Shown: positions 18,734-52,609 of the stretch, piece after piece | How positions within the stretch are numbered: position 1 is the stretch's first letter | Layout of the letters: each line of letters starts with the position of its first letter | Assembly (NCBI GenBank): GCA_024277375.1 | Contig: JAJRVD010000027.1 | Coordinates: 19,063 to 83,062, forward strand | Source: Candidatus Omnitrophota bacterium | Lineage (GTDB): Bacteria; Omnitrophota; Gorgyraeia; Tantalellales; Tantalellaceae | Length of the DNA: 64,000 bases | Direction of reading: 5' to 3' | Program-made: the position numbers and the translations under genes | Notes under the pieces: model-generated | What the model saw: only the letters and a program-made list of their open reading frames with translations | Told to the model about the DNA's origin: nothing | Databases searched by the model: none

Positions 18734-18754
18734 TTGCTACGTTGTTCGCTCGTG

Positions 18755-21700
18755 ATGACGGGGAAGGGTATTGCCTCGCTGGTCACTTTGATAGCTTTTG
18801 TATTAAATATTTTAGGCGCGGAAGTTATTAGTATAAAAGCATATGCCGCTATTTCCCCTGAAATAGCTTCTACCAATCCCGCTGAGTATAATTTTCTGAA
18901 TGTCGATTCTTTTACATTACCCAAATACCTTGGAACCATAAAAGATTTGTGGAAGTCTGCCTCCGGACGAGACACGGTTATTCATATCCAGGACGCTCAT
19001 TGTAACTATGCCGCGCAGGATACGATAGCTAAGATGATAGAACGTATCGATTCGGAGTACGATATAGACGTGATAAATCTTGAAGGCGGCGCGGAGGATT
19101 ATGACCTGTCTTTGTTTACCGATATTGAGGATAAGGGCGTAAGACAAAAAGTAGTCGACTATTTTATGAAGCTTGGCATGGTCTCCGGTGCCGAAAGCTT
19201 TGTTCTTAATAATCAGGATAAAGCAAAGTTATGGGGCGTCGAAGACGTGGATCTTTATTTTGACAACCTTAGCGCCTACCGGAATTCGCTGGAGTACAAG
19301 GAAGAAGTTGACGGGTATCTTAAAATGCTCAGCCGTTTGCTGAATGAACTTAAAATAAACGTTTATTCGAACGAACTTTTGGAGTTTGATCTTAAATATT
19401 CCGCTTACAAGGCGGGTAATCTGGCTTTCAGAGATTATGTGATCTATATTCGTGATAAGGCCGCGAAATGTGCTATCGACATGGAGGAGTTTGAGAATAT
19501 TGCGTTATTGTCTGAGTCTCTTGAACTTGAGGGCAAAATTGATTTCAAAAAGGCCAATCGCGAGAGGGATATGCTCATAGAAGAGCTCCGGCGCATGGTC
19601 TCGAAAAACGAGCTTGAAAACCTGGTGCTCAAGACCTTACAGTTCAAGAAAAAGATAATTTCCCGGAAAGACTATTATACGTATCTTTTTGAAAAAGCGC
19701 GGCTTGTGAACATCGGCTTGGATGGGTTCGGCGAACTCAGGAAATACACTGACTATATCTCAAAGTATCAGACCGTTGATAGATCAAAGATATTAGAAGA
19801 AATGTCTATTATTGAGGATGCGATCAAGGATGTTCTATGCGTAAAAGATAAAGATCGTACGCTTGTCAGGTTGTCCAAGAATTTCGCGCTCCTAAAGAAC
19901 ATATTCAACGTCTCGCTCACAAAAGACGACTATGTGTATTACAAAACCAACGAACCCGCGTTCGCGGTGAAAAACTATATTTCATTCATTAAGGCTAACG
20001 ACTCATCATTGCGTGGAGCTGTGCCTTTCTCGCCGTTGCGAGGAGCCGACCTATCCTCTGTCATTGCGAGCCCGCCGAAGGCGGGAGAAGCAATCTCTGA
20101 AAACATCTATAATCTCGACCGCCACCGCGAACAAATATCCCGTTTTTACGAAGATGGCATCAAGCGTGACGATGCATTCTTGCGCAACCTCAGGTTTCAA
20201 CGTAAGCAGGGAGTAGGAAGCAGGGAGCAGGGTGTCGTAGGAGAGGCCTCTAGCCGTGAACAAAAAACGACAATTTTAGTTACCGGCGGATTTCACACCA
20301 AAAATTTATGCGAGCTGTTTAAAGAGAAAGGTATCTCCTACGTTTCTATCATGCCTAACTTCCGGAATGAGAATGGTTATGAAAGCCCGTATTTTAACCT
20401 TCTCGCTGGTAAGAAAAATGATGTAGCCGCGGCGCTTACAAGTGATATATCTTCGTTGGCGTTATATTCTGATTTATTGCAGAACGGTCTAAACAATGGA
20501 GATTTTACCTCGAATGTTAAAGCGGTTAGAAGGTTGTGGGTAAGTCTGGTTGCCGCTCAGATCAGGAAAAACGGGAGAAATGTCATATTCGGAGATATTA
20601 ATGGTCGTTATAGACGCTATTCATTCAACTCCGAAGATGGTGATCCTGTAGCGGGACTTACAATAAACGGAAAACAGGTATACGCAAGGAATTTTGGTGG
20701 GGAAAGATCCCTTCAGGCTGAAGCGAAGGCATTATATGAGGAAATTTCCAGAGATATTGTATCCTTTGCCGCGGAAAGAGAGGAGATAAAGTCCGCGGTT
20801 GTCAGGTTAAGAGAGATCTTTAGTACTTTTCCCGACGTTGTTATCTCTGAAGTGAGAAATTTCTGGGAAAATGAAAAAGAAAGCACCGGAAATGTTTTCA
20901 GAGCTGTCGAGTTCTTTGATCTGATGCCCGAGATAATGCTTAATGCGAAAGTAGAGCGGTTGAAAGAAGCGGCGTTGAGTTTTGTCGACCGTCAACTGGA
21001 ACATATTTTTGACAGAGAAAACGCGGTGGCCATATATAACGAGATAATATCTACCGACGAAGGTATTCCTCAAGACCTGCTCAAATACGCTTTGTACTAC
21101 AGGAATCTAAAGGAGGGTAAAACTCTTACGGATGAGCAGTTGGCCCTGCATGGCCTCAGCAGCAAAGAGGACTTCCCATATTCCCTCGAGGTCGATCGTG
21201 TCTTAAAACACAAGGATGATAGTAATCCTAAAAAACTTTTGCTTATTTATAATGCTGAACATACCAGTATGGTAGGGATGGGAGACCAGATATCAAATGT
21301 GGTTCCCCTGGTTCAGGCACTTAAGGATAAATATCCCAAGTTGGACATAACCATATATACGGATAAACCCTTTGTGTATGAGGCTCATGACAATGTCCGT
21401 GTATTTAGCATGTCTTCTCCCGGAATAAATGCCGAAGAGGTTTTTGATATGGCGATCGATTATTCGGACAGTAAGAGTCGAGAGGAATATCCGGATAAAT
21501 ATTTAGTTCAAGAAGCGCAGATCTCTATTGTAGGGGATTTCAATAATTTAACAGTTAAGGCTAAGGGGTTACCGCCTTTGGGCATAAAAGTTCGTAATCG
21601 AAGTAATGCATATTCATTAAGCTTACGGTTATGTGCCGAATTGAGACTTCCTGTCAGGATAGGAACAGAACAACCTCAGACAAGTTCGATAGTTCTTGGC

Positions 21701-24700
21701 CCGGGTAGTGAGGAAGCCGATATGTGGTGGGAGGAAAATGTAGTATTGAAAAACACAGAAAAGAGAAAAGTCGTATTTTTGAATCCGTATGGAGGGGAAT
21801 GGAAGGAAAAGGGATACATTTATAACGATAGGCTAGTCAAGGATATAGAAGCCCTTCTTGAAGACGGAAACTATATTGTTATATCTCCAAATGACACTCG
21901 TTGGGGTACTCGTGAAAAAATCGAAGAAATGCTGAAACTATTAGATGCAGCAAAACAAAAATACATTACTATTTCAAAGGGTCCGTCAGAGGCTGGAAAT
22001 TTAATAAAACATTGGTTATATAGGGCTGATCATATTGTCACGGTTGAGGGTGGTACCGCGCATTTGGCCTACAATTTGGGTAAAACATTTACGCTTGTCT
22101 GGAAAAGAGGCGCGGGATTACTACATGATATCCCGCCTATGTGCGATCTTGGTCAGGAGTTAATCCCGATAGGAGGTAAACCGCAGGATATAGTGGATGC
22201 TGTTAAAAGAGCTTTTGAGAGTGACGATGAAGGCTCAAAAGTTACTAGTATCGGAACCGGAATTTTGCGAAAAACAAAAACAGTACTATCCGGTCTTTTG
22301 GTCTTTCTTGCCGGATCTTCAGCTTTGCAAATACTTTTGGCGGGCGATCTCTTCGCGGCGACGCCGGATGCGATTATGCAGGCTACTGCGACGCCGTGGG
22401 GCTGGATTGCAGTAGTGGTGGTTGCGGGTTTTATTGTGTATAGGTATTTTGCGATGTCTGCAGAAAGAATGGGTACAAAAGTTATTCCATTGGGAATAGC
22501 AGGTTTGATCTTTATGGGGGTTCAATGTAGCTATGCAGCCGCGTTGTCTCCACGTGAGGGTAAAACAAAAATATTAGTTTCATCTGCTGAGTTTCAGGAA
22601 AAACAGCAGCAGATCCGAGAAATGATAAAAGGGCTTGCGGATAGCGAAGAACATCTTTCAGGGAAAGAAAGGGAGTTGCTTGAAGGAATATTAAGTCTTA
22701 TCGAGGATGGAGATATCAAGATTAAATATGATCCTGAAAGGAATTATGCGTATGCCGATAAAGAGAATAAAGAAGTCGGGTTGCCTGAGAGTAGCTTCAT
22801 GGACAGGTATCGATTGGCGAGTGCCATAATTCATGAATTATTACATCAGCTATGCGCGAAACGTAATATCGATTTTTCAGATAAGATTAAAACGAGTGGG
22901 TTTAATGATTCAAATGATTATTGGCAATGGCTTGATCCCGGGGAGGAAGGATGGGTGCTCCGAAATACCATGATGATCATGAATCAAATCCCGATGGAAG
23001 CATTAGGCCTGAAACTGCTACTTGCGGAAGTCCCAAATCAAGAATCTTTCAATACTCAGATATTGACATATGATAACGAACCCATTACGAATGTTGACAG
23101 AATTATAGAATTGGCAAAAGATCCGGAAATGGTTATGGAAAAAAGAAGATTTCTGGTGAAGTTGTTACCTCTCATAAGCCTTAATATCGCGGAAAAAGTC
23201 GGAAACACCGGGATCATAAGGCCAGTTGACGCGGAAACCTCAAAAGAGGCAGAAGAGGCTTTGCTGGCTTTGAAAAAGTATTATGAGAGCGAACAAAATA
23301 TATTAGCAACGAAACATAAAATCCTGAAAAACAATAAGAAGAGACCCAAGCTGGTTAATGGGGCGGTCCGTCTGTCCTGGAAAGATCCCTCCAAGCTAAC
23401 ATCAGAAGATAAAGATCTCGTTGAATGGTGGTCAAATGTTAAATTGCTGGAAACGATAGAGCTATCAAGAAGGATGCTTAACGAGAGCAAGGTAAGTGTA
23501 GATAAAAAGTTAGATGAGTTTACTGTCCTAATAGTGGATGGGATCAAGCGTGAAATGAAGGTATCTGATTTGAGAATAGGGATGGCACGTATGTTGTATG
23601 GGAGTGAAGAAAAACTCGTAAAAGATGTCTTGAGGGAGTTGAAGCCTTGGGAAATCGACCTGATCGTGTATTACCAAAAAGAGATAAGGATCAAGCTAAA
23701 ACAGACTATTTCATATTATGAGGGAAGAGAGTTTGAGTTTAATAAGAACAACTTAACGGGAGCAATTAGCACGATAATGATGTCGCTTTTGCGGGATGTC
23801 TCAAAAACCGAGTATAACAGCATTTATGATCATAATAATCGTGGCCTTAAATGGGATGACCCGGGACGGTGGCATGGGCTCACGTTTGATGATAGATGGT
23901 ATGAGATCGGCAACCTGAATGGTTTATCATATAATTACTATAACGAACATCGTAAAAATGAAACAGAGGAAGAAAAGTACAAAGCTGATAATCCAAACAG
24001 GCCGAAAAATTTCGTTAACAATAACGCGACAAAAGGGTTTCGCGTGGATATGAGGGAGACATATTTATTCATGCGCTTCTATCCTGAAGAACTAGCTAAG
24101 ATCGTTAAGAAGGACAGAGGTGTAGCCGCAAAAGTAGAATTATTGGAAGAATATATGGGCAAATTGAAGCGGAATGTTAATAAAACAGCAAAATGGAGAG
24201 GAGACAGACAAAAAAAGAAAGAGAGTGAAAAGACATCAGACGGTATCAATACACTTAAAGGAATAATGGCTTTCGCGATAGCCCTGCCGCTTGTGCAGAT
24301 GCTTTTGGCGGGCGATCTCTTCGCGGCGACACCGGGGGTGCTTGTGCCCTCGATATTTAACTCGTTTAATGTTATAGGGTTCTTGTTAACGGTGGTGTGC
24401 TTAGGTTTAGCCGGGCTTATTCTTTATTATGATACCAATGATGCGGACGAATGGGATGATATCCCAGAGAGTGAGTCGATAAGGGCCTGGCAGGTTCTCT
24501 TAGGAGGGCGTGAGTGGGAAAAGATGGGGAAAGAATTCACTGACCGCTTAGCGATCTTGACCCCACAGGAGAGTGAGAACCGAACACTTCTTTTTGAGTT
24601 TTTGGAGAGATTCGGAAGAAAAGATTTACTCGCCCATATCAAGAGAAAACCGGATGAATTTTTGCCTGTTCTTGAGCATTTGAGGGGTAGTGAATTCATT

Positions 24701-27700
24701 TCAGGATACTTTGGAGAATTACTATATAGGGTAGACCGGTCGGGGGAGAAAGAACAGGAATTGCTGGATCTTGACTTGAAGACAGAACCATTGAAGGTAT
24801 GGGAATTGATAGATATTCTCATTGAAGTTGATTCATTTCAGCAAGATCTATACGAGTTCCTGACAAAAGATACCGCATATTCGGCAATACCCGGACAACA
24901 GTATTTGCCGCTTAATGTGAATGTCGTAAATGTTGTAGGGCAGATGGTTGAAGAAACGAGAAGTGCAAATCGGGTGAATATAAGGGGCAATCTTATCGCG
25001 ATAAGCGGGCAATTCCCCGGATATTATGCCGCTATTTGCGATTCTATTCTGAGGAATCCTGCCAGGATTCTAGAATTTGACATTGCCCCGGAAGTTGTAG
25101 AAAGAAATCTAAAATTTCTTCAACCTGAAAATTCCAAAGATCATATAACCTCTTTTGAGGGGTTTGTGGCGTTTCTGAAGAGGGAAAGTAAAGTTACCGA
25201 TAATATGGGGAAATCACCCATTGGTAAAGGTGTTCTGGATATATCGAAACGTGTTTTTAAATTCTTCGGCAAGGAAATAACTCCGGTTGTTGAAAATACA
25301 TGGATCCCGGTATTTGAAGAACTTGTGATGTTTTTGGTTTTGGCGGGCGGATATTTGGGCGGGTTATTCGTTCTTTCCGCACTGCCGTATATCCTCACCA
25401 GAATTATATTTACCGCATGGCACCTGAAAAACGAAAGTGGCACCTGGTTGCAGAAAATGCTTGTGCCGGGCATCGCGTCTGTGTTTGCGCTTATACCGGT
25501 GATGGCGGTTTTGGTATTGCCGGCGGTGTCCGCAGAGTTAATGTTAGCGGCGGCATTGGCTTTGGGAACCGGAACACATGTGCTAGGAAACCGGAGAGTA
25601 CACAAAAAGCGGATGGATGCATTTAAGCGTATCTTCGAAGAGAAAAAAGAAACTCTCGTTAAACAGGTAAGTGATGAAGAATTATTGGATGAATTTATCG
25701 GATATCTAGATGTGAATGTCAAAGAACTATTCGGGATCGGATTGCTTCTTGAGATAAGAGAGTTCTCTAAGTCTATACCTTTATCCAGAGATGAACAAAC
25801 TCGTCGCGGAAGACAAAGGGCGATTCTTTTAATGGCCGGGTTGAATGTCAGCGAAACGGAGTTGTACAAAGAAAATCAAAGAAAGATCGAGGAAGAACGC
25901 GTAATAGCGGAAGATCTAAATGGTATGGAAAATATTCATGATCTGATAGAGGGAAAGTTTGTTACGGTAAAACAGCTGAAAAGGGCCATAGAACTGTCCG
26001 CTGGGAACATAACCTCAGCGCTTGAAACATTAAATAAACTGAAAGACGTTATTAAAAAACACGGTATCGATGAGCTGTTTGAATTAGCCGATTTGGAGCG
26101 CGTATCCAATAATGTTCCGTGGAATTGTTTTGAATGGGTTGATTATGATTCCGCGCGAGATTTATTGGATCAATACGGCATCAAGCCATTTCTCAAAATG
26201 AGACGTTTGGGAGTAGGAGAATATTCATATCGTTCCATAGATTCTTATTCTCTGACGCTTCGGGGCATATTTAATTTGGTTAGGGACATGAGAGATGGGG
26301 ATATCAGTGAGAGATATGGGATAAGTGTTACCGGTTCTAATGTCGAGAAAATAACCATCAACATCATCAAAGAAAAGATATCGCTAAAAGGGCCGTCCAG
26401 TTTGCCTGTTAACATGTTCCCGGAAGATGAGATCGAATTTTTAGAAAAAAGTCATGAGGATACATACCGGCGTGAGAGCGAAAAAAACATGGATCGTTAT
26501 CTGAACAGGGAAAAACATAAAAAAGCGATATTGTCGTATATGCTGCTTTGCGAACGTTACGGCCCGGATAACATTAGGCGTCTTGTGCGGGATAACGTGC
26601 TGGAGAAGTGGAGCGAAAAAGTAGAGTCAATTAAAGACCAGTTGAGAGATCTAAAATCCGTGATCGACTTGCCGAGTGTCGGGATAGAACCGTTTGTTGA
26701 GTTTTCCGGAGGGAATGAAGACGGGCTTTGGCCGCTGACATTTATTGAAAAAGAAAAATGGGCACAATTTCTTACGTCGATACTAATTCAAAGAGGAGAT
26801 GTCACCGCGAAAAATAAAAGGCTCAGCGATCTTTATATCAACAATATGCTCGCTTCGGTAGGGAACAATATTGTTCCGAATGTGTCTATGATCAATGTTA
26901 TCGCGGAACTCCTTACACATAACGCGCAAAGCGGGGTACATCCCGTAGAGAGTTTTTTGCTTTCCGCGCTTGGTGAAGCGGGATTAAACAAGGGTTCAAT
27001 AGAAAAAATCTTAGAATATCTGGCGAAGAACAAAAAAAGTGAGATAAAAAGGTCGCAAATTATACGGGCCTTAGCCGGTATATATTGGGGATTTAAGTAT
27101 GAACGCTTTTCGGCGGGAACAATAGATACGCGAATGATAAACGCTATTATCGAGACGGAAGACACTCGCCGATTAAGCGCGGCGCTGAATTTTATCCCCG
27201 CGTTAATTGATCTTCTCGAGTCGGGAATACTTGCCAAAGAAGAGATCGAAACCGGGACAAGATCGGGAAATATAGTTGACAAAATCGGAGGGTTATTGAA
27301 AAGTAAGATTGAAGAAACATTTAGTATAAAGATCAGTGATACCGATTTGGAGGTACAGGCGGCTCTTTCCGACACGTATTTTCTGGCGGATTTATTCAGT
27401 TTTCGAAGAAAGTATAAGGAAGAAGACGAAAACGCCTATAAGATATTCCTGGGATTGGTCAAAGCGTATTTTGAGAACGGCAGTAAAGGTGTGAGAGAAT
27501 ATAAAAACTCAAATGAGCTTGTCAATGTACAAATCCCTGAAAGGATAAAGGAGAAAGGATTTGAACAACTTTCGCGCCTCAGGACGTTCGCGCGGTCGGG
27601 GGAAGGTGAAGAGATGAGTGTATTTGACCGACTATTTAAAACAACATTAAGAAATTATGATGAGCATTCTAAGGAAATGAAATTTGATCCCGGTTCGATC

Positions 27701-29623
27701 AGCGCGGCGTCAACGGAAGAAATAAGTAACTTTGAGAAGAGTATAGAGGAGTTTCGCGGGGGAATAAGTAACATTGAATTAAAGAAAGCTGTAGAGCATG
27801 CTATAGCGTCGGGAGATACTAATACGTTAAAGAAGTTAGAAAATCTATCACGTCCGGATAAAAAGTCACGCGGATATGCTATCGGATCGATCGAAAAATT
27901 GTACGCGATGCGGCAAGAAGGTAGCGTGGTCGAAGCGGCTATGATAATCAAGAGCCTGCGCGGTATCAAAGATATTTCCGTCGGGGAACAGGAAAAAGAG
28001 CTCAGGACATTATATTCCTCCAGCAAAGAAAAGATTGAGGAGCTTATTCCGACATTGAGGTATATCCGCGGCAAAATGCAGGCTAAAAATAAACCCGTAG
28101 CGATAATTATAGGAGGAATGATTGGTTTATTGACAGGATTGGAAAAATTCTCAACAGGAAAGAGCGATATATTATCGGAGAAGAAAATCACGGCGGAAAT
28201 AAGTTTTGACCTGAAAGAGATCTTAAAAATAGGGCGTTACGGCGCCAGCGGCGAAGGTAATTGCCAGCATAGCAATAGTCCGGGTGAGAGCAACCATAGT
28301 TTAATGAGTTTTATAGGGGACGCTCATGAACTTATTATTCTGTTTAGAGATGATGACGGTATTGTCGTAGGGCAGGCGCTGATGCACGGAGTATACCTGG
28401 AGACCGGAGATTTTGTTTATATGAAAGAGGATGTTTACACTAATGATAATTCCCTGAAAGCGTTGATGGAAACCGCGGCAAGGAGAATGGGTAAGGCAAT
28501 AGCTAATTTTTACGGAATTAAAGTTTTAGATCCAGGGGCAGTCGAGAATAAAAAGATTTTTAATAACATAAAAATACCGCCAAGTAAGGTATTTCGTTAT
28601 TTAGACTCATTGGGCGGAGAAGTGTACACGTTTATGGAATCCATGCCGCTTGAAAAACCTTTATTGGCAGGGGTAGTTGAACCTATACACATTCGGGGCG
28701 GACGGGAAAGTAGCTATAGATTGTCTCCCATCGGCGGGATGTTGAGTGCGGATCAGCTGATCGCCCGTGCACAGGACCCTAAGATTTCTGCCGCGGAATT
28801 GGTCGGAAATCTGAAGCTGACCGGATTAGATCAAGCACATGTGGTTCAGGAGGCTTTGGCTGATCCGGAATATGCCGACAAGCTCAAAGAATTTAACAGG
28901 TTGCTTGCCAGGGCTCTGGGGGGAACCGAACTTGTCGAAAAGGCGAAAAGGGAGGAGAGGGAAGAAGCGATCGAAGATCGGCAGGCGGTGACGGTGGAGG
29001 TATTTGGGGAGGTTAACAGGAAAACCGATACGGTGAGAGCGGTTATAGGTGTTCCCAAAGGCATGCCGCAGAAAGTACTGCAGAAAATGCTTCGTGAAGT
29101 TAACAGAGGCCTTGCCAAAAATGGGTTTGGAGAGAGAAACGATACGCATCAGGTCATAGTGTTTGAAATGGATGCTGACAATAAAGATTTAACGGAAAGT
29201 AACCAGGCCGCGGCAGTAGAAAAAGCCCGGAAAGATCTATCCAAAAAAGGAATGATCGTTCTTTTTTCGCCCGAGACGGACAAGTTGCCGCTTGCGGAAC
29301 TCACGGTTGAAAAGTACAAGGATCAAGAAAATATTACTATTATCAGAGATGCTTATTCAGATTCCAAGCCGCAAGAAAAACAGTTCCTTGATGTTGATGT
29401 AAGGGCGGCACTCGCTAGGCATATAGCTTTTTATTATAACGGCAGTGATCAAGCATCCGCGATAAGCGCGATAAATGCTTTGATGAGGCAGATATCCGAT
29501 GAGCATAAGGACATATCGGATATAAACGAACTATTGGCCATGGTTGTTAGAATAAGGCCGATCGATTATGGGGAAATAACGCAGTGGGCCGAAGCGCAGA
29601 TAGCGACGGCAACGTCGCTGTAA
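18755..29623 (+). CDS. Giant (about 3620 aa) polytopic membrane multi-domain protein with an embedded GT9 (heptosyltransferase-like) domain
   Basis: A 10.9-kb open frame. The ATG at 18755 is the first start downstream of the family-A palindrome. An N-terminal TM helix is present. Region nt 18920-20450 carries IHIQDAHCNYAAQ and ILVTGGFHT, a weak resemblance to the TraB/GumN/ChaN fold. Region nt 21230-22110 matches the GT9 pattern: KKLLLIYNAEHTSMVGMGDQISNVVPLVQALKDKYPKLDITIYTD and ADHIVTVEGGTAHLAYNLGKTFTLVW. An HExxH motif (IIHELLHQL) is near nt 22835. There are two TM bundles, each beginning with the identical motif LLAGDLFAATP (nt 22339 and 24301). A further 4-helix TM bundle is near nt 25300-25600. 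Confidence 0.8.
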   Translation: MTGKGIASLVTLIAFVLNILGAEVISIKAYAAISPEIASTNPAEYNFLNVDSFTLPKYLGTIKDLWKSASGRDTVIHIQDAHCNYAAQDTIAKMIERIDSEYDIDVINLEGGAEDYDLSLFTDIEDKGVRQKVVDYFMKLGMVSGAESFVLNNQDKAKLWGVEDVDLYFDNLSAYRNSLEYKEEVDGYLKMLSRLLNELKINVYSNELLEFDLKYSAYKAGNLAFRDYVIYIRDKAAKCAIDMEEFENIALLSESLELEGKIDFKKANRERDMLIEELRRMVSKNELENLVLKTLQFKKKIISRKDYYTYLFEKARLVNIGLDGFGELRKYTDYISKYQTVDRSKILEEMSIIEDAIKDVLCVKDKDRTLVRLSKNFALLKNIFNVSLTKDDYVYYKTNEPAFAVKNYISFIKANDSSLRGAVPFSPLRGADLSSVIASPPKAGEAISENIYNLDRHREQISRFYEDGIKRDDAFLRNLRFQRKQGVGSREQGVVGEASSREQKTTILVTGGFHTKNLCELFKEKGISYVSIMPNFRNENGYESPYFNLLAGKKNDVAAALTSDISSLALYSDLLQNGLNNGDFTSNVKAVRRLWVSLVAAQIRKNGRNVIFGDINGRYRRYSFNSEDGDPVAGLTINGKQVYARNFGGERSLQAEAKALYEEISRDIVSFAAEREEIKSAVVRLREIFSTFPDVVISEVRNFWENEKESTGNVFRAVEFFDLMPEIMLNAKVERLKEAALSFVDRQLEHIFDRENAVAIYNEIISTDEGIPQDLLKYALYYRNLKEGKTLTDEQLALHGLSSKEDFPYSLEVDRVLKHKDDSNPKKLLLIYNAEHTSMVGMGDQISNVVPLVQALKDKYPKLDITIYTDKPFVYEAHDNVRVFSMSSPGINAEEVFDMAIDYSDSKSREEYPDKYLVQEAQISIVGDFNNLTVKAKGLPPLGIKVRNRSNAYSLSLRLCAELRLPVRIGTEQPQTSSIVLGPGSEEADMWWEENVVLKNTEKRKVVFLNPYGGEWKEKGYIYNDRLVKDIEALLEDGNYIVISPNDTRWGTREKIEEMLKLLDAAKQKYITISKGPSEAGNLIKHWLYRADHIVTVEGGTAHLAYNLGKTFTLVWKRGAGLLHDIPPMCDLGQELIPIGGKPQDIVDAVKRAFESDDEGSKVTSIGTGILRKTKTVLSGLLVFLAGSSALQILLAGDLFAATPDAIMQATATPWGWIAVVVVAGFIVYRYFAMSAERMGTKVIPLGIAGLIFMGVQCSYAAALSPREGKTKILVSSAEFQEKQQQIREMIKGLADSEEHLSGKERELLEGILSLIEDGDIKIKYDPERNYAYADKENKEVGLPESSFMDRYRLASAIIHELLHQLCAKRNIDFSDKIKTSGFNDSNDYWQWLDPGEEGWVLRNTMMIMNQIPMEALGLKLLLAEVPNQESFNTQILTYDNEPITNVDRIIELAKDPEMVMEKRRFLVKLLPLISLNIAEKVGNTGIIRPVDAETSKEAEEALLALKKYYESEQNILATKHKILKNNKKRPKLVNGAVRLSWKDPSKLTSEDKDLVEWWSNVKLLETIELSRRMLNESKVSVDKKLDEFTVLIVDGIKREMKVSDLRIGMARMLYGSEEKLVKDVLRELKPWEIDLIVYYQKEIRIKLKQTISYYEGREFEFNKNNLTGAISTIMMSLLRDVSKTEYNSIYDHNNRGLKWDDPGRWHGLTFDDRWYEIGNLNGLSYNYYNEHRKNETEEEKYKADNPNRPKNFVNNNATKGFRVDMRETYLFMRFYPEELAKIVKKDRGVAAKVELLEEYMGKLKRNVNKTAKWRGDRQKKKESEKTSDGINTLKGIMAFAIALPLVQMLLAGDLFAATPGVLVPSIFNSFNVIGFLLTVVCLGLAGLILYYDTNDADEWDDIPESESIRAWQVLLGGREWEKMGKEFTDRLAILTPQESENRTLLFEFLERFGRKDLLAHIKRKPDEFLPVLEHLRGSEFISGYFGELLYRVDRSGEKEQELLDLDLKTEPLKVWELIDILIEVDSFQQDLYEFLTKDTAYSAIPGQQYLPLNVNVVNVVGQMVEETRSANRVNIRGNLIAISGQFPGYYAAICDSILRNPARILEFDIAPEVVERNLKFLQPENSKDHITSFEGFVAFLKRESKVTDNMGKSPIGKGVLDISKRVFKFFGKEITPVVENTWIPVFEELVMFLVLAGGYLGGLFVLSALPYILTRIIFTAWHLKNESGTWLQKMLVPGIASVFALIPVMAVLVLPAVSAELMLAAALALGTGTHVLGNRRVHKKRMDAFKRIFEEKKETLVKQVSDEELLDEFIGYLDVNVKELFGIGLLLEIREFSKSIPLSRDEQTRRGRQRAILLMAGLNVSETELYKENQRKIEEERVIAEDLNGMENIHDLIEGKFVTVKQLKRAIELSAGNITSALETLNKLKDVIKKHGIDELFELADLERVSNNVPWNCFEWVDYDSARDLLDQYGIKPFLKMRRLGVGEYSYRSIDSYSLTLRGIFNLVRDMRDGDISERYGISVTGSNVEKITINIIKEKISLKGPSSLPVNMFPEDEIEFLEKSHEDTYRRESEKNMDRYLNREKHKKAILSYMLLCERYGPDNIRRLVRDNVLEKWSEKVESIKDQLRDLKSVIDLPSVGIEPFVEFSGGNEDGLWPLTFIEKEKWAQFLTSILIQRGDVTAKNKRLSDLYINNMLASVGNNIVPNVSMINVIAELLTHNAQSGVHPVESFLLSALGEAGLNKGSIEKILEYLAKNKKSEIKRSQIIRALAGIYWGFKYERFSAGTIDTRMINAIIETEDTRRLSAALNFIPALIDLLESGILAKEEIETGTRSGNIVDKIGGLLKSKIEETFSIKISDTDLEVQAALSDTYFLADLFSFRRKYKEEDENAYKIFLGLVKAYFENGSKGVREYKNSNELVNVQIPERIKEKGFEQLSRLRTFARSGEGEEMSVFDRLFKTTLRNYDEHSKEMKFDPGSISAASTEEISNFEKSIEEFRGGISNIELKKAVEHAIASGDTNTLKKLENLSRPDKKSRGYAIGSIEKLYAMRQEGSVVEAAMIIKSLRGIKDISVGEQEKELRTLYSSSKEKIEELIPTLRYIRGKMQAKNKPVAIIIGGMIGLLTGLEKFSTGKSDILSEKKITAEISFDLKEILKIGRYGASGEGNCQHSNSPGESNHSLMSFIGDAHELIILFRDDDGIVVGQALMHGVYLETGDFVYMKEDVYTNDNSLKALMETAARRMGKAIANFYGIKVLDPGAVENKKIFNNIKIPPSKVFRYLDSLGGEVYTFMESMPLEKPLLAGVVEPIHIRGGRESSYRLSPIGGMLSADQLIARAQDPKISAAELVGNLKLTGLDQAHVVQEALADPEYADKLKEFNRLLARALGGTELVEKAKREEREEAIEDRQAVTVEVFGEVNRKTDTVRAVIGVPKGMPQKVLQKMLREVNRGLAKNGFGERNDTHQVIVFEMDADNKDLTESNQAAAVEKARKDLSKKGMIVLFSPETDKLPLAELTVEKYKDQENITIIRDAYSDSKPQEKQFLDVDVRAALARHIAFYYNGSDQASAISAINALMRQISDEHKDISDINELLAMVVRIRPIDYGEITQWAEAQIATATSL

Positions 29624-33385: not shown

Positions 33386-34945
33386 ATGAAAATTAAACGA
33401 GCATTGATCAGTGTGTCGGATAAGGCTCACTTGGAGGGTTTTGTAAAAGTGTTGGATCAGCTGGGAGTAGAGATAATTTCTACCGGTGGAACCGCAAAGA
33501 TGATCAGTTCCTTAGGTGTCTCCGTTGTGGAAGTTTCTGATTATACAGGGCTCCCTGAAATGATGGATGGAAGGGTAAAAACACTCCATCCGAAAATACA
33601 CGCCGGACTTTTAGCTGTTCGTGATAATGATGAACATATGAGCCAAATGAAAGAGCAGTCCATCCCGACAATAGATATGGTAGTGGTTAATCTTTATCCG
33701 TTCGAAGAGACTGTCGCGCGTCCAGGGGTGACAATGGAAGACGCGATCGAAAATATTGATATCGGAGGACCTAGTATGCTTCGCAGCGCGGCAAAAAATT
33801 TCAGATCGGTCGCTGTTCTAAGCTCGCCGGAGCAGTATGGAAGTATTATTGATGAGTTGGAGGCTACCGGCGGCGAAATCTCAGAGGCCACTATGAAAGG
33901 TCTTGCGGAGAGCGTATTCGCGAGGACAGCTCAGTATGACGGTGCTATAGCCAATTACCTCTCCGGTGCCTCCGCGGCCTCAGAGGATGAGGATGATCTT
34001 CCGGATGAGATAAGCATAAAATTAAATAAAGTGCGGTCTCTCAGGTATGGTGAGAACCCGCATCAGAAAGCGGCTTTTTACGCGGAAGCCGCGTCTAAGA
34101 ATTCGTGGATAACCGAAGCTGAACAGTTGCAGGGTAAGGAACTTTCGTTCAATAATATAATAGACCTTTCATCCGCGTATGAGATGGTAAAGGTTTTTGA
34201 GCAGCCTGCCGTAAGTATCGTCAAACATAATAATCCTTGCGGCGCGGCAACAGCTGAAACGTTGGAACAAGCCTACTTAGGCGCGCTTGATTGTGACCGC
34301 CTAAGCGCGTTCGGCGGTATCATGGGGTTTAATCGGGCCATAGGCGGGCAGATGGCCGAAGTTATATTAGAAGAGGCTGATTTTGTGGAATGCGTGATCG
34401 CACCGGACTTTGACGCGGAGTCTTTAAAAGCGTTCAGTGTTAAGAAGAACCTCAGGGTATTGAAAGTTCCGATCTCGGATGTATCGACCGAAAAAGATAT
34501 CAAAAAAGTCCCGGGCGGTGCTTTGGTCCAGGATGCCGATGCCGGGGTGATATCTGAAAGTGACATTAAAGTTGTTACGAAAAATAAACCTTCGACGGAA
34601 TTGTTGGACGCGATGATGTTCGCGTGGAAGATCGTAAAATTCGTTAAAAGTAACGCCATAGTGTTAGCTAACGGGACTAAAACCGTTGGTATAGGCGCGG
34701 GGCAAATGTCACGAGTGGACTCGGTGATAATCTCTATACGCAAAGCCGCCGACAGAACAAAAGGTGCCGTTCTTGCCAGTGACGCTTTTTTCCCGAAAGC
34801 GGATTCTATTGAAGAAGCGCACAAAGCGGGTGTAGCCGCTATCATCCAGCCGGGTGGCTCTATACGAGATGAAGAGGTTATCGCCGCTTGCGATAAGTTC
34901 GGGATCCCGATGGTTTTGACAGGTATGAGACATTTTAGACACTGA
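33386..34945 (+). CDS. purH: Bifunctional AICAR transformylase / IMP cyclohydrolase PurH
   Basis: The N-terminal MGS-like domain KRALISVSDK and the typical C-terminal end ...GMRHFRH are present. At 519 aa the length fits. Confidence 0.9.
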   Translation: MKIKRALISVSDKAHLEGFVKVLDQLGVEIISTGGTAKMISSLGVSVVEVSDYTGLPEMMDGRVKTLHPKIHAGLLAVRDNDEHMSQMKEQSIPTIDMVVVNLYPFEETVARPGVTMEDAIENIDIGGPSMLRSAAKNFRSVAVLSSPEQYGSIIDELEATGGEISEATMKGLAESVFARTAQYDGAIANYLSGASAASEDEDDLPDEISIKLNKVRSLRYGENPHQKAAFYAEAASKNSWITEAEQLQGKELSFNNIIDLSSAYEMVKVFEQPAVSIVKHNNPCGAATAETLEQAYLGALDCDRLSAFGGIMGFNRAIGGQMAEVILEEADFVECVIAPDFDAESLKAFSVKKNLRVLKVPISDVSTEKDIKKVPGGALVQDADAGVISESDIKVVTKNKPSTELLDAMMFAWKIVKFVKSNAIVLANGTKTVGIGAGQMSRVDSVIISIRKAADRTKGAVLASDAFFPKADSIEEAHKAGVAAIIQPGGSIRDEEVIAACDKFGIPMVLTGMRHFRH

Positions 34946-34949
34946 TCCC

Positions 34950-36290
34950 ATGGAAGCTCACACCGATACTATTACCTATCTCAATTCTTTGATCAATTAT
35001 GAGAAGAGCGGGTTTGGCCCGGATTGTAAACATTTTGATCTGGATAAATTGCGCGTGGTTCTTGAAAAATCAGGGAATCCCCATCATGATTACAGGTGTG
35101 TGCATGTTGCCGGGACAAAAGGCAAGGGGTCCATATGTGAATTTGCCTCAGGTATTTTGCAAGCATCTGGCTATAGGGTGGGTCTATTTACTTCACCTCA
35201 TCTTAGTTCTCCGAACGAAAGAATAAAGATAAACGGAAATATGATACGCGATGATGACATTGCCGGCGTGGTCAGTTGTCTGAGGGAACATCTGGGGCAC
35301 GCGGAAGGTGAGTTCACTTTTTTCGAGGTATATACGCTGCTTGCCTTGTTATATTTCAGCAAAGAAAAAGTAGATCATGCTATTTTTGAAGTGGGTCTTG
35401 GGGGACGGTTAGACGCTACCAATGTGATATTTCCGGACGTGTGCGCCATTAGTCCTGTAAGTTACGATCATATGGAAGTTTTGGGCTCTAAGATCGATGA
35501 GATAGCTATTGAGAAAGCGGCGATAATAAAAAAAGGCACACATTGTGTAAGTGCCGAGCAGATCCCATCGGTTTTGAATGTTATAGATAAAAGATGCCGG
35601 GAGGTCGGGGCATCTTTGTCTGTTGTCGGCAAGGATATAACGTATAAGCCTACCAGTTTATCCGAGGTCGGAAGCTGTTTTGACGTAATAAGCAGGGACA
35701 CGGCGCGCCGTGCCCCTGCCATAAAAAGATACGAGGGATGCAAGGCGAATATGCCCGGTGAGTTCCAAGTTTCTAATGCCGCCACGGCTGTAGGTATATG
35801 TGAAAAACTTCTCGGCGCAGAAAAAACGGATATGGAGGCGTTTAAGCGCGGTATCCAGAACGCGTTTCTCCCCGGGAGATTGGAGACCTTGTGTCGGTGT
35901 CCTGCAATTGTTATTGATGGCGCCCAAAATGGTGCCAGCGCGGAACATCTGAAATATTCTGTTGAACAAATCTTCAAATATGATAAATTAATACTCCTCC
36001 TGGGGATCTCGGACGATAAATACGTAAAAAGTGTATGTCGCGAGCTTGTGCCTATAGCGGATGAAATAATACTTACTCGTTAGTCTAGCAGTCGAGCTAC
36101 GGATCCACACTTGATAAGAGGCCATATAAGAGGTAAGCGAGTTAATGTAACTAAAAACACGATCGAAGCTCTGGGGTTGGCGCTTAAGACCGCCGGAGAA
36201 AATGATATGATCCTGGCGACGGGGTCGTTTTTTTTGATTGGAGAAGTTAGGGGATTAGTATTAGCACAACAAATTCAAACGACACAATAG
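34950..36290 (+). CDS. folC: Folylpolyglutamate synthase/dihydrofolate synthase FolC with a single in-frame TAG at 36081-36083
   Basis: The Mur-ligase P-loop VHVAGTKGKGS is present. The same frame continues past the TAG for 68 codons. These encode the conserved FolC C-terminus ...[34 protein letters not shown], consistent with the VLVCGSFHTVAHV end of E. coli FolC. The track ORF stops at 36083. Confidence 0.8.
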
Positions 36291-37657
36291 CGGCGATATC
36301 TACACCTCTCGGAGAGGGGGGTATCGGGGTAATACGTCTAAGCGGAAAAGACTCTCTCGAGATCGCGGATAAGATCTTCTCTTCGCCCAAGGATAAGGGT
36401 TTATCTTCTTCAGAGAGTCATACGGTGCGTTATGGACATATTAAATCCCCTTCAAGCGGTGAGATCGTGGACGAGGTTCTCCTTACCGTTCTTCGCGCTC
36501 CAAGAACTTACACCGCTGAAGATGTCATCGAAATAAGCTGTCATGGCGGCACCATGTCCCTGAAGAAGGTACTTGAGCTGTGTCTTACCGAAGGTGCGCG
36601 TCTGGCGGAACCCGGCGAATTTACCAAACGCGCTTTTTTAAGCGGCAGGATCGATCTGTCTCAGGCGGAAGCGGTATTGGATATTATCAAGTCTGAAACA
36701 GATACTTCTCGCAAGGTTTCTGTCGATCAGCTTCGCGGTGTTTTTTCTGAGGAGATCCGCGCTTTACGTGCGGCTATCGTGGAAACCCTCGCTCTTATTG
36801 AGCTGACGATCGACTTTTCTCAGGAGGACGTGGATTTTCCTGAACCTGAAGAGACGATCGAAAAAATAAATGATATAAATCAGTCGCTTCAAAAGGTTCT
36901 CGGGACTTATGACAAGGGGATGATCCTGCGTCAGGGGGCTAGTGTTGTTATCTGCGGAAGACCAAATGTAGGCAAATCGAGCCTTATGAACGCTTTGTTA
37001 AAACATGACAGGGTAATAGTAACTCCTGTCGCCGGGACGACCAGAGATGTGATAGAGGAGTCCATAGACCTGTCGGGAGTTAAAGTAAGGTTATCTGATA
37101 CGGCAGGCATAATAGAAACTCGCGACAGAGTCGAAGTCGAGGGCATAAAGCGATCAAAGGAAAAATTAGAAGCTGCGGATATTGTTATCTTTATGTTGGA
37201 CTATAGCCGTGTTTTTTCTGAAAAAGACGCGGCCATATTCAATACTATCAAGGACAAAAAGGTTGTCGTGGTTGTGAATAAGACAGATCTTTCCGGAAAA
37301 CTCAGGATCAAAGAAGTTAAAGAAATGTTGGGTGTCAAAAATACCGTGGAACTGTCGGTTCTGAAAAATAAAGGTATTGAAGAACTGGAAGACGCCATAG
37401 CGGAAAAACTTTTTGAAGGCAAAAGCGGTATTCCGGAAGGTCCCATAGTTACGAATATGCGGCATAAAACGCTTTTGGAGAAAGCTGTCAGGAGTATGGA
37501 CAGATGTATTAAAGAAGCGATAGATAAAGAGTTTAAAAGTGAACTGGTTGCCAGCGACCTTAATGACGTGGTTTATCATCTTGGCCTTATCATAGGTGAA
37601 TCCGTCAGTGACGACGTGCTGGACAAGATATTCTCACAGTTCTGTGTGGGCAAATGA
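36260..37657 (+). CDS. mnmE: tRNA modification GTPase MnmE (TrmE); probable non-canonical ATT start
   Basis: The conserved N-terminus [23 protein letters not shown], the G domain [16 protein letters not shown] and the C-terminal CVGK are present. There is no ATG, GTG or TTG in frame between the upstream stop (36248) and the conserved N-terminus. ATT at 36260 is preceded by AGGGGA 5 nt upstream. The track ORF starts at an internal GTG (36425). Confidence 0.8.
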
Positions 37658-43409: not shown

Positions 43410-44003
43410 ATGAGATTTAACAATGAAATAAAAGCCGGGATAGTTGTTGCGGCAGCGATCGCCGCGGGGATGCTTTTCTTTCTTAAAACAGGGACAAATT
43501 ATACTGAGACATATGAGGTGAAGACATATTTTCAATACGCCGGAAATCTTACTGCTGATGCTACAGTGAAACTCGCGGGAATTGAAGTGGGTAGGCTTAA
43601 AGAAATGAAATTCGTGTATACTCCCGAGACGAAAGTTGAGTGTATTCTTGAAATTGACGGAGTGGCGAGAATACGAGAGGATTCGCTTGCCTACATAGAT
43701 ACCGCGGGTTTCGTGGGCGACGCGTATATCGGTATTACCGCGGGAGAATCTTCTGAATTTTTGAAGGCTGGAACCACACTCAATAGTGAAGATCCGGTCC
43801 AGATGCGGCTTTTGATGAAAAAGGCTGATGATATTACGAAGAATCTGGATAGTATTCTTGTCGATATCAAATCTATTGTTTCCGATAATAAGGGGAACAT
43901 AGATGATATCGTAGTCAACTTAGAAGCTACTACTGAGAATTTCAAGGAATTCAGCGAGGATGTTAAAAAACATCCGTGGAAACTCATGTTCAAAGGGGAA
44001 TAG
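43410..44003 (+). CDS. mlaD: MCE-domain substrate-binding protein MlaD
   Basis: An N-terminal TM anchor and the MCE domain VKLAGIEVGRLKEMKF are present. It lies in an operon with mlaE and mlaF. Confidence 0.75.
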   Translation: MRFNNEIKAGIVVAAAIAAGMLFFLKTGTNYTETYEVKTYFQYAGNLTADATVKLAGIEVGRLKEMKFVYTPETKVECILEIDGVARIREDSLAYIDTAGFVGDAYIGITAGESSEFLKAGTTLNSEDPVQMRLLMKKADDITKNLDSILVDIKSIVSDNKGNIDDIVVNLEATTENFKEFSEDVKKHPWKLMFKGE

Positions 44004-44012: not shown

Positions 44013-44528
44013 ATGATAAAAAAAATTATCATATGTGTTGCCTTCCTCTTAAGCCTGACTTATCTTACGTACGCCTCTAGCGATACGATCGTAATACTTT
44101 CTTTTGCCGGTGATGTGAAAATCATACCTTCCGGCGGAACAGATCCTGTTTTTTGTAATCCCGGTATGATATTGAAAGAAGGGACGCGTATTATTACGGG
44201 AGAAGAATCCTATCTTGAAATGGCTTTTGATAGATCCAGCCGAAACATCGTAATAGTAAAAGAGAACAGCGAAGTCGTCATTAGGCTGGACGGGATAGAC
44301 AAGATCAGTCTTATAGACGGTAAAATGTATACGCTTCTGCGGGAGCTTAAGAAAGGCGCGACTTTCAGGGTCCGGACACCAAGTGCCATATGCGGTGCTC
44401 GTGGTACCGGATGGAGCGTGTCGGCGGATGAAAACGTAACAGAGATCATATCTTTTGACGGCAGGGTTTTTGTTCGGGGCATAAACAGTGACGGGTCGGG
44501 AGCGGAAGAAGAGGTCTGGATCGAGTAA
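44013..44528 (+). CDS. Secreted FecR-domain protein (171 aa)
   Basis: A signal peptide is followed by the FecR-domain pattern GDVKIIPSGG...LKEGTRIITGEESYLEMAFDRSSRNIVIVKENSEV...FRVRTPSAICGARGTGWSV. Confidence 0.6.
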   Translation: MIKKIIICVAFLLSLTYLTYASSDTIVILSFAGDVKIIPSGGTDPVFCNPGMILKEGTRIITGEESYLEMAFDRSSRNIVIVKENSEVVIRLDGIDKISLIDGKMYTLLRELKKGATFRVRTPSAICGARGTGWSVSADENVTEIISFDGRVFVRGINSDGSGAEEEVWIE

Positions 44529-49092: not shown

Positions 49093-50721
49093 ATGAAGTT
49101 AGAATTAAAAAAATTAAATAATTTTACACCTCGGAAAGGGCCGCTTTTGCTTATAATTATGGATGGTGTGGGGATAGGGCCTGAAGATGAGTCCAATGCC
49201 GTCTATGTTGCTAAGACACCATGCCTGGATCGTTTGTTTAGCAGCGATTTGTACTCTACGCTACAAGCGCACGGTGTCGCGGTGGGGCTTCCGAGCGATG
49301 AAGATATGGGAAATAGCGAAGTCGGACATAATGCTTTGGGTGCGGGACGTGTTTTTGCTCAAGGCGCTAAAATGGTAAATAATGCCATAAGCGATGGGAC
49401 TATTTTTAAAACGGATATATGGAATAAATTGTCGAATAAAGGGGAAAATGATGGCGGTACGATCCATTTTATAGGGCTCTTGTCGGATGGCAATGTTCAT
49501 TCTCATATTGAACAGTTGTTCGCGATGATAAAACAGCTTGCCAATGACGGTGTTAGAAGTGTGCGTGTGCATGTGCTTTTGGATGGTAGAGATGTTTACG
49601 AGAAATCCGCGTTGACGCACATAGATAAGACAGAGGAAGTGCTTGTTAAGATACGTTCCGAGAAAGGATATGATTATAGGATAGCTTCAGGCGGCGGACG
49701 AATGGTGACGACAATGGATCGATATAGTGCTGATTGGAGTGTTGTGAAAAACGGATGGGACGCGCATGTGCTCGGCAAGGCACGTCGGTTCTCTTCAGCG
49801 CGCGAAGCGGTAGAGACGTATTATAACGAAGATCCTAAAGCGACCGATCAGTATTTGCCGACTTTTGTCGTCGAGGAGGATGATAAGCCCGTGGGTCCTA
49901 TTGTTGACGGGGATTCGGTGATATTTTTTAATTTTAGAGGTGATCGCGCGATCGAGATCTCTCGCGCGTTTGAAGAGAAAGATTTTTCTGAATTTGATCG
50001 AGAAAGGGTTCCTGATGTTCTTTATGTCGGGATGATGGAATATGACGGAGATCTGCATATCCCTGAACATTTTCTGGTAGATCCGCCGCAGATCGACCGT
50101 ACGCTTTCAGAATATCTGTGTTCAGCGAACGTTAGTATGTTCGCGATCTCTGAAACTCAAAAATTCGGACATGTGACTTATTTCTGGAACGGGAATAAAT
50201 CGGGATATATTTGTCCCGATATTGAAGAGTATATCGAGATCCCTTCGGATAAAATACGGTTTGATAAAGCGCCCGGGATGAAAGCGGCGGAAATCACGGA
50301 TAAGACCATAGAATTATTAAAAAGCGGTAAATTCCGCTTTGGACGTCTTAATTTCCCGAACGGGGATATGGTAGGGCATACGGCATCGGAAAAAGCCGTA
50401 ATAGAAGCGGTAGAGTCGGTAGATGCCTCTGTTCAAAGACTTCTGGATGTTATAAAAGAACTCGGCGGTGTTGCTCTAATTACGGCCGATCATGGGAATT
50501 CTGATGAGATGTTTACTATAAAGGATGGTAAACACATACCTAAAACGGCCCATACCCTTAATCCTGTGCCTTTTGTGATATATGATCCTGAGTACTCAGA
50601 GGAATATAAGATGCGGGATCTGTCCGAAAGAGGACTTTCTAATGTAGCGGGTACGATCCTCAACCTTCTGGGGTATGAGAATGTAGAAGATTATGATCCA
50701 TCGCTGGTGGAGCTTAAATAG
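49093..50721 (+). CDS. gpmI: 2,3-bisphosphoglycerate-independent phosphoglycerate mutase
   Basis: N-terminal LLIIMDGVGI is present. The metal-binding region contains TADHGN. 542 aa. Confidence 0.85.
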   Translation: MKLELKKLNNFTPRKGPLLLIIMDGVGIGPEDESNAVYVAKTPCLDRLFSSDLYSTLQAHGVAVGLPSDEDMGNSEVGHNALGAGRVFAQGAKMVNNAISDGTIFKTDIWNKLSNKGENDGGTIHFIGLLSDGNVHSHIEQLFAMIKQLANDGVRSVRVHVLLDGRDVYEKSALTHIDKTEEVLVKIRSEKGYDYRIASGGGRMVTTMDRYSADWSVVKNGWDAHVLGKARRFSSAREAVETYYNEDPKATDQYLPTFVVEEDDKPVGPIVDGDSVIFFNFRGDRAIEISRAFEEKDFSEFDRERVPDVLYVGMMEYDGDLHIPEHFLVDPPQIDRTLSEYLCSANVSMFAISETQKFGHVTYFWNGNKSGYICPDIEEYIEIPSDKIRFDKAPGMKAAEITDKTIELLKSGKFRFGRLNFPNGDMVGHTASEKAVIEAVESVDASVQRLLDVIKELGGVALITADHGNSDEMFTIKDGKHIPKTAHTLNPVPFVIYDPEYSEEYKMRDLSERGLSNVAGTILNLLGYENVEDYDPSLVELK

Positions 50722-51339: not shown

Positions 51340-51759
51340 ATGGAGGGGAAAATGGATAAGACGAAAATGGAGGGGTTCGGACCGCATTTGATGCTGGACC
51401 TCAGACAATGTAATCAGGAAAAACTAAAAGACTATAGTCTTATATTTAATATTCTGCATGAGCTTCCCAAAAAGATCGGGATGACAAAAATAACTCAGCC
51501 GTATGTATTTCCGTATTCCGGCCTTGTTCCTGAAGATAAAGGCATAACGGGAACGGTGATCATAGCGGAAAGTCATATTTCAATACATACTTTTCAGGAG
51601 AAAGACTATTGTTTTGTAGATGTATTTTCCTGTAAGGAATTCTCCGTTGAATTCGCCGCGGAATACCTTATAAATGCTTTTGAATCAAAGGAATTCGATA
51701 AACACATAGTTCATAGGGGTAGATATTTTGCGATACATCCAGAACTTGAAAAAGTATAG
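51340..51759 (+). CDS. speH: S-adenosylmethionine decarboxylase proenzyme (SpeH type, pyruvoyl-dependent)
   Basis: GPHLMLDL and the self-cleavage site context IIAESHISIHTFQE (the E-S bond) are present. A second in-frame ATG at 51352 lies after GGAGGGG and may be the real start. Confidence 0.8.
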   Translation: MEGKMDKTKMEGFGPHLMLDLRQCNQEKLKDYSLIFNILHELPKKIGMTKITQPYVFPYSGLVPEDKGITGTVIIAESHISIHTFQEKDYCFVDVFSCKEFSVEFAAEYLINAFESKEFDKHIVHRGRYFAIHPELEKV

Positions 51760-52609
51760 AAACTTCGGAGATATTTCGGGATCATTAACAGAGCTGGATT
51801 CGGCACGAATAGTGATCTTGCCGATCCCTTATGATAAAACAAGTACATGGATCAAGGGGGCCGATAATGGCCCCCTTGCTATTTTAGAGGCCTCGCGCGC
51901 GCTTGAATTATACGACATTGAAACTGATTATGAGGTTTATAAACACGGTATATATACCTGTCAACCGATTGTAACCGATTCCTCGCCCGAGGAAATGGTG
52001 CGGGAGGTCAAAAAAACAGTGCTTGGCCTTTTAGAGGATGAGAAGTTCGTTGTTACTCTCGGCGGCGAACATTCGGTAAGTATAGGCGCGGCGCAGGCTT
52101 ATGCCGATCAGTTTGATGATATTTCCGTGCTTCAATTGGACGCTCATTCGGACCTGAGAGATGAATATGAGGGGAGCCGATATAATCATGCCTGCGCGAT
52201 GGCTAGAATTAGTGAAATAGCTCCAATAGCGCAAGTCGGAATAAGGAGTATGGATTCGTCCGAGAAAAGTAAATTGGATAGTAAGAATGTATTTTTCGCC
52301 AGGGACATATGCGGGAAAGACGATTGGATAGACAAAGCAGTTGGTTGCCTTAAGCCTAACGTATATGTTACTATAGACTTGGATATGTTCGATCCGTCCA
52401 TTATGCCGGCAACCGGTACCCCGGAACCCGGTGGTCTTGATTGGTATTCGGTATTACGCTTTTTAAAATCCCTTAGCGAAAATAAAAATGTAGTGGGGTT
52501 TGATATCGCCGAACTTTGTCCGATGAAAGACAATAAGATCTCGGACTTTACAGCGGCAAAGCTTGTGTATAAGTTTTTAAGTTATGTGTTTAAAACTAAG
52601 GGAAAATGA
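51728..52609 (+). CDS. speB: Agmatinase / arginase-family ureohydrolase
   Basis: Mn-binding motifs GGEHSVSIGA, DAHSDLRD and DLDMFDP are present. It overlaps speH, which suggests a polyamine operon. Confidence 0.8.
   Translation: MRYIQNLKKYRNFGDISGSLTELDSARIVILPIPYDKTSTWIKGADNGPLAILEASRALELYDIETDYEVYKHGIYTCQPIVTDSSPEEMVREVKKTVLGLLEDEKFVVTLGGEHSVSIGAAQAYADQFDDISVLQLDAHSDLRDEYEGSRYNHACAMARISEIAPIAQVGIRSMDSSEKSKLDSKNVFFARDICGKDDWIDKAVGCLKPNVYVTIDLDMFDPSIMPATGTPEPGGLDWYSVLRFLKSLSENKNVVGFDIAELCPMKDNKISDFTAAKLVYKFLSYVFKTKGK

Follow-up and report, generated by a model that had tools for sequence, protein, structure and literature searches.

At the folC-mnmE junction of a bacterium belonging to Candidatus Omnitrophota, a stop codon interrupts the first gene in frame, and no canonical start codon is present where the second gene should begin. 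Do these two neighboring peculiarities form a device through which the translation of both genes is recoded, or are they lesions on which selection has not acted? The locus is part of a gene-dense window, by which we mean the entire stretch of 64,000 nucleotides of this Omnitrophota genome that was analyzed (coordinates are those of the window, and features are located on the plus strand unless stated otherwise). The genes purH (33386-34945), folC (from 34950), mnmE (up to 37657), and folE follow one another at the locus; both neighbors of the folC-mnmE pair, purH and folE, are intact. The closest relatives of the MnmE and FolC proteins are encoded by Omnitrophota MAGs and exhibit 57-67% identity.

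The folC gene encodes a dihydrofolate synthase/folylpolyglutamate synthase. Its reading frame opens with an ATG at 34950, continues for 377 codons (34950-36080), and then meets an in-frame TAG (36081-36083), which is followed by exactly 68 sense codons (36084-36287) and by a terminal TAG (36288-36290). The first-pass annotation of this DNA had regarded the codons beyond the internal TAG as a conserved continuation of FolC, and both the sequence itself and the comparison with related proteins bear this out. The part in front of the TAG, delineated from the open reading frame list, the Pfam profile Mur_ligase_M and its relatives, is 57-62% identical to seven Omnitrophota FolC proteins, while the 68-codon tail is 48-67% identical to its seven closest relatives, has retained six of six near-invariant columns, and can be aligned up to the end of the Thermotoga maritima FolC structure (1O5Z). 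In 16 folC-mnmE loci from Omnitrophota and other bacteria, FolC is unbroken and comprises about 430-445 amino acids; the public gene call for the gene studied here (P0001) is a 377-amino-acid fragment. The last nine codons of the tail (LAQQIQTTQ; 36261-36287) are not conserved in the relatives and probably represent a stop-loss extension of FolC. Separate translation of the tail from a TTG codon at 36111 was considered as well and rejected, since this codon has neither a Shine-Dalgarno sequence nor a precedent.

The alignment column occupied by the internal TAG is informative with respect to its likely origin. Among 112 full-length FolC homologues this column holds Ala in 70 proteins, Ser in 34, Val in four, Thr in two, and Phe and Ile in one each, so that a small Ala or Ser residue, encoded in the relatives by GCN or TCN codons, is present in 104 of 112 cases; it belongs to the buried and conserved LTR[A/S]S strand. 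A stop codon was found at this position neither in the 112 full-length homologues nor in the 16 syntenic folC-mnmE loci. From all the residues observed, the only single-step path to TAG is the C>A change TCG>TAG, and the reverse substitution (A36082>C) would yield a TCG (Ser) codon, a state seen in relatives. Sixty nucleotides upstream of the TAG, FolC deviates a second time: the Asp residue of the DKD motif, present in 111 of the 112 homologues, is replaced by Tyr through a TAC codon (36021-36023) that is one G>T step away from GAC. This loss could not be repaired by reading through the TAG and consequently counts against a recoding interpretation.

The mnmE gene, encoding the tRNA modification GTPase, poses the second problem. 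Its reading frame is closed by a TAG at 36248-36250, and the codons that follow read GGG ATT AGT ATT AGC ACA ACA AAT TCA AAC GAC ACA ATA. We confirmed by reading this frame from the TAG onward that neither ATG nor GTG nor TTG is present between the stop codon and the conserved N-terminus, as had been claimed. The first canonical codon, a GTG at 36425, is not reached until 55 codons of the TrmE_N domain have passed, and it is from this GTG that the public call (P0121) derives a 410-amino-acid MnmE that lacks 55 TrmE_N residues. In the frame that opens at 36251, positions 1-117 of the Pfam TrmE_N profile match from residue 12 onward, and a gene started at the ATT codon at 36260 (36260-37657) would have the full conserved length, with the TrmE_N, MnmE_helical, and MMR_HSR1 domains. 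In all 79 usable mnmE loci inspected, a canonical start (ATG, GTG, or TTG) is located near the N-terminus, and in each of the 16 syntenic relatives it is an ATG that usually overlaps the end of folC.

Is the ATT at 36260 then a start codon in its own right? It is preceded, at a spacing of 5 nt, by the Shine-Dalgarno-like hexamer AGGGGA (36249-36254), exactly as had been noted. The duplex of this hexamer with the anti-Shine-Dalgarno sequence amounts to -6.4 kcal/mol (gene median -3.7 kcal/mol), a value that 11% of random positions match or exceed. The same nucleotides also serve as the Arg-Gly codons of the conserved GEVRG sequence of FolC and are found in relatives that use ATG; being dictated by these FolC codons, the hexamer argues against a dedicated AUU start. 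The ATT lies seven codons in front of the conserved DTI sequence, within the range of three to eight codons at which the relatives begin, and it is the best available and the only plausible near-cognate start codon of mnmE. Hence, of the suggestion that mnmE is initiated at a rare AUU codon, the choice of this ATT stands, whereas a dedicated AUU start does not accord with canonical codons in 79 of 79 loci. If AUU initiation did take place, the predicted N-terminal peptide would be (f)Met-STTNSNDTIAAISTPLGEGGIGVIR. The distance of 28 nt between the beginning of MnmE and the end of the FolC extension is correct for the ATT at 36260; it does not hold for the Asn codon of NDTI, whose first base (36278) precedes the last sense base of folC by 10 nt.

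Access to the mnmE frame by a -1 frameshift from folC at the U UUU UUG run (36228-36236) was rejected because the TAG at 36248 follows five codons later; downstream of this TAG, there is no slippery site for a folC-to-mnmE frameshift. A terminator-like hairpin followed by eight T residues is present inside folC (36207-36236) and overlaps the conserved ILATGSFF codons. Its T-run also occurs in the relatives, and the counts from a scan of the junction for promoters and terminators are within those expected by chance.

A single base offers a common view of the two ends. At the junction, the sequence ATTA (36260-36263) consists of the ATT codon followed by an A, and a T36262>G reversion changes ATT to ATG in the mnmE frame and, at the same time, TTA to TGA in the folC frame. 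The junction would then read GTATGAGC, with an ATGA start/stop overlap, an arrangement of folC and mnmE that is present in one of the relatives (L001). One base change at T36262 therefore explains why mnmE has no canonical start and why FolC carries a nine-codon tail. Tight translational coupling is a habit of this genome, since five other ATGA overlaps (8032-8035, 8868-8871, 14858-14861, 37654-37657, and 52606-52609) and one TAATG junction (at 45930) are found in the window.

Single-base reversions restore the state of the relatives at each of the three sites, 36021 (T>G, regaining Asp), 36082, and 36262. The corresponding changes, all presumably G:C>T:A substitutions, fall within 242 bp, and each of them strikes a strongly constrained position; the ancestral state was reconstructed by parsimony from relatives with no more than 57-67% identity. 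Paths that create nonsense codons are inherently rich in G:C>T:A changes (seven of 23), so that the shared substitution class of three out of three is weakly significant (about 0.03). The closeness of the two oddities, to which the first-pass annotation had drawn attention, is real: a distance of 181 bp separates two of the four gene-breaking lesions in the window (p roughly 0.03). When the junctions of the relatives were compared, none had a stop codon in the column of the TAG or an ATT as the start of mnmE.

The junction does not stand alone. We scanned the whole window for stop codons flanked by open frame on both sides, followed by homology checks, and found two further conserved genes that are interrupted. 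One is a pcrA/uvrD-like helicase gene (14858-16879), in which a TAA (16544-16546) is located just in front of motifs V and VI. The alignment with PcrA (1PJR, residues 22-648) is colinear through this TAA, and the 110 codons downstream of it clearly belong to UvrD_C (Pfam positions 288-346). The sequence context, GAC GAA GAA TAA, suggests that the stop codon may have originated from GAA by a GAA>TAA change. The other is a RAYT/TnpA-REP-like gene (55995-56495), interrupted by a TAG (56352-56354) in front of the catalytic tyrosine motif Y-x-x-NPV; here, too, Escherichia coli TnpA-REP (4ER8) aligns colinearly on both sides of the stop codon. In the segment 55967-56527, the RAYT (Y1 transposase) gene is flanked by perfect inverted repeats of 28 nt; CGTAGGAGCGGCCTCCGGCCGCGAACAT occupies 55967-55994, and the reverse complement of this sequence is located at about 56499-56526. 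A REP-like sequence resembling these repeats is present in the folC-mnmE spacer of another relative (L005, about 3530-3950).

In total, the contig harbors at least four gene-breaking lesions in 64 kb, all of which are substitutions, and we found no frameshifted gene in this stretch. Several pairs of same-frame neighbors that might have been taken for split genes proved to be separate genes: MgtE and its neighbor, AccA and an RsbW-like kinase, and MlaD and a FecR-like protein that share a frame (43410-44003 and 44013-44528). The reading frames 494-4876, 4922-5728, and 5729-6607, which share a frame and are divided by TAG codons only, were considered as a possible single gene. Their junctions resemble ordinary stop/start junctions, with a TAG followed by an ATG and with an AT-rich spacer; the frame 4922-5728, which has no homologue among 5.8 billion proteins, is uninformative in this respect. 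A leave-one-out comparison of FolC and of MnmE, the latter against 79 relatives, counted one deviation at near-invariant columns in FolC and none in MnmE, in a missense search that covered these two proteins and whose power is too low to measure an error rate of 0.1%.

We also looked for a second copy of the sequence. FolC (P0001) and MnmE (P0121) form singleton clusters among 15 billion proteins, and the next FolC in a search of 5.8 billion proteins is 62% identical. Look-ups of the exact proteins for another assembly of the species returned nothing on record, and metagenome contigs contained no match to a DNA pattern in which NNN stood in for the TAG. The species represented by the contig has thus been seen once in the collections searched, and its bases are without independent corroboration.

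Could the TAG in folC be something other than a stop? Had TAG been reassigned or become efficiently suppressed in this lineage through a suppressor tRNA, loss of RF1, or a pyrrolysine-like system, the TAG codons of folC and of the RAYT gene would be sense codons, and two of the three in-frame stops in the window are indeed TAG. This idea is already largely refuted and hardly deserves credence. TAG terminates the genes for LeuRS (52606-55116), iPGM (49093-50721), SpeH (51340-51759), a β-barrel outer-membrane protein finishing in YKF (58551-60065), and a GT4 glycosyltransferase (10353-12245, minus strand), all of which have complete Pfam profiles. Hence, at least five conserved genes end with TAG at homologous C-termini, and the sequence beyond these codons is not protein-like. 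The LeuRS gene closes with TAG-x-TAG-TAA, a reading frame of 3679 codons is free of TAG, and the third interruption in the window is a TAA. No tRNA with the anticodon CUA is among the five tRNAs encoded in the window, and in-frame TAG codons occur in two of about 45 genes. Treating the TAG at 36248 as a sense codon does not help mnmE either, since the frame that would be gained, back to a TGA at 36203-36205, contains no start codon. In short, TAG is an ordinary terminator in this window.

It is on these grounds, together with the features of the codon itself, that we weighed the proposition that the junction is a coupled recoding device, in which UAG 36081 would be read through, as a programmed or a tolerated event, and MnmE deliberately started at AUU 36260, so that the expression of both genes is tuned. 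As this proposition would have it, conservation in the 68 codons behind the TAG equals that in the remainder of FolC, although the same would be expected of an error or of a lesion of very recent date; an ATT occupies the homologous start position with a Shine-Dalgarno-like hexamer 5 nt upstream, and AUU starts are known from infC and pcnB of E. coli. The completion of FolC by programmed readthrough that had been put forward nevertheless fails on several counts. The stop codon and the non-canonical start are absent from all relatives; the minimum free energy of the region downstream of the TAG (36070-36200) is no better than that of shuffled sequences (z = +0.65), so that no stimulatory structure is evident; the base following the TAG is a U; TAG is a normal stop codon in this window and here replaces an Ala/Ser residue in a buried conserved strand; and the invariant Asp nearby has been lost too. 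The AGGGGA hexamer is forced by the GEVRG codons and is also present in relatives starting with ATG, genes unrelated to folC are also broken, one by a TAA and one by a TAG, and one base change covers both the ATT and the FolC tail. A literature search on stop-codon recoding in Omnitrophota returned nothing relevant. We regard coupled recoding as improbable. Still less probable is a lineage of Omnitrophota with leaky termination, for instance through a suppressor tRNA encoded outside the window, that tolerates in-frame UAG and UAA codons in housekeeping genes (folC, pcrA/uvrD) and an AUU start of mnmE, with reduced expression of the interrupted genes as a regulatory or drift-tolerated state.

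The reading that we favor, at a probability of about 0.6, is that the junction carries unselected point lesions, most likely consensus errors of the assembly, and not a recoding device. A G>T change at 36021 would have converted the invariant Asp of FolC into Tyr, a C>A change at 36082 the Ser codon TCG into TAG, and a G>T change at 36262 the ATGA overlap into ATTA, whereby the ATG of mnmE and the TGA of folC would have been lost together and FolC would have gained its nine-codon tail. Taken as written, the locus would specify a truncated FolC with a mutated Asp position and an MnmE that could be started only inefficiently from AUU. Consensus errors are favored because the lesions are substitutions only, belong to one chemical class, are tightly clustered, and affect otherwise conserved genes on a contig known from a single copy; further support comes from the same contig, which has isolated in-frame stops at two other sites but no frameshift. 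The one chemical class, G:C>T:A, holds wherever the direction of the change can be inferred. Such errors might have arisen where the patch was covered by few reads, through miscalls of the G>T type or an oxidized template. Cross-talk between the G and T channels in four-color Illumina chemistry yields changes of the G>T/C>A class. Costello and co-workers are said to have found, in 2013, that oxidation artefacts normally stay at low allele fraction and would not usually win the consensus. Other observations speak against errors: three nonsense codons in 64 kb imply roughly one substitution per kb if they are random, a high rate for a consensus built from short reads with reasonable coverage; near-invariant columns deviate once in FolC and nowhere in MnmE, so that these low-powered tests do not demonstrate a heavy overall burden of errors; and the ATT has a correctly spaced Shine-Dalgarno-like sequence, as a selected start would.

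The facts of the sequence would be the same if the G:C>T:A changes were genuine and recent, having arisen in a mutator lineage that suffers from oxidative damage or deficient repair and in which folC has been inactivated, mnmE weakened, and both have become young pseudogenes. That the pcrA/uvrD-like helicase is itself broken by a premature TAA would suit such a lineage; so would the condition of the damaged genes, which show no further decay, as befits very recent events, and the AUU, a known if weak initiator (10.1101/063800), which is placed behind a well-spaced AGGGGA. In this case MnmE, if made at all, would reach a few percent of its normal level by initiation at AUU 36260. Yet natural disruptions include frameshifts at least as often as nonsense mutations, and all four lesions here are substitutions; three hits within 242 bp are not expected of a mutator acting genome-wide; and the joint loss of FolC, of PcrA/UvrD, and of MnmE translation would be a heavy load for a dominant genotype, in a genome that is compact and otherwise intact. 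We therefore consider genuine mutations the main alternative, possible but unlikely, at odds clearly below those of consensus errors.

With consensus errors as the preferred reading, the closest counterparts of the locus are the pseudogenes with internal stops or lost starts that populate draft genomes and MAGs. As in these, single lesions in conserved genes can be restored by one base, several sites are affected per contig, and the lesions are not conserved in relatives; the present ones differ in being unusually clustered (three in 242 bp), in all being G:C>T:A, and in that one of them strikes a start/stop overlap and harms two genes at once. Artefacts from 8-oxoguanine would need very low coverage to reach the consensus. 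G>T/C>A changes that stem from oxidative DNA damage are a documented class of library-preparation artefact (PMC3616734); the substitution class is the same as that seen here, where both strand orientations are represented.

The known cases of unorthodox translation match the locus less well. In infC of E. coli, the AUU start is conserved and is part of the autoregulation of IF3; the mnmE loci of the relatives, in contrast, are canonical in 79 of 79 cases, and a single step separates the ATT from an ATGA overlap. Phage Qβ A1, MuLV gag-pol, and pyrrolysine exemplify programmed readthrough and UAG recoding, and folC resembles them in that an in-frame UAG is followed by conserved coding sequence; unlike in those systems, the stop codon is not shared by relatives, no RNA structure follows it, and UAG is a normal terminator throughout the window. 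We know of no recoding in the FolC gene family. The inferred ancestral folC-mnmE junction would correspond to the ATGA overlaps that mediate translational coupling, whereas in the present sequence this overlap is destroyed (ATTA). In E. coli, infC and pcnB are the only genes with confirmed AUU starts, and initiation at AUU reaches about 1-2% of that at AUG (10.1101/063800); the two genes share with mnmE an AUU behind a Shine-Dalgarno sequence at normal spacing.

Viewed against its relatives and the rest of the contig, the locus would thus appear to mimic a double recoding event and to dissolve into single-base lesions. As such the finding is ordinary, and support for the recoding interpretation does not extend beyond the ATT as the best available start codon. 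Its value is chiefly that of a caution, useful to annotators and as a warning about the quality of this contig. In the annotation, folC should carry a flag for an interrupted or low-quality gene, and mnmE should not be called from the GTG at 36425, which removes 55 residues of the N-terminal domain. The contig should be handled as one with substitution errors or fresh mutations, at roughly one visible gene-breaking site per 10-20 kb. Should the bases be real and fixed, an uncultivated bacterium with a broken FolC and a broken helicase, or one that reads through stop codons, would be of moderate interest.

Two features of the window are recorded here in their own right. Two unusually long stretches in which no gene is convincing (16880-17417, about 540 nt; 18045-18649, about 600 nt) flank the gene for a HAD hydrolase (17418-18044); they are situated upstream of a giant reading frame, and the minus-strand reading frames within them have no Pfam match. 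This giant frame (18587-29623; 3679 codons) and another very large one (494-4876; 1460 amino acids) are without a significant Pfam domain, and a further frame of at least 1250 codons extends from about 60240 to beyond 64000 and runs off the end of the window; Omnitrophota are known for giant genes.
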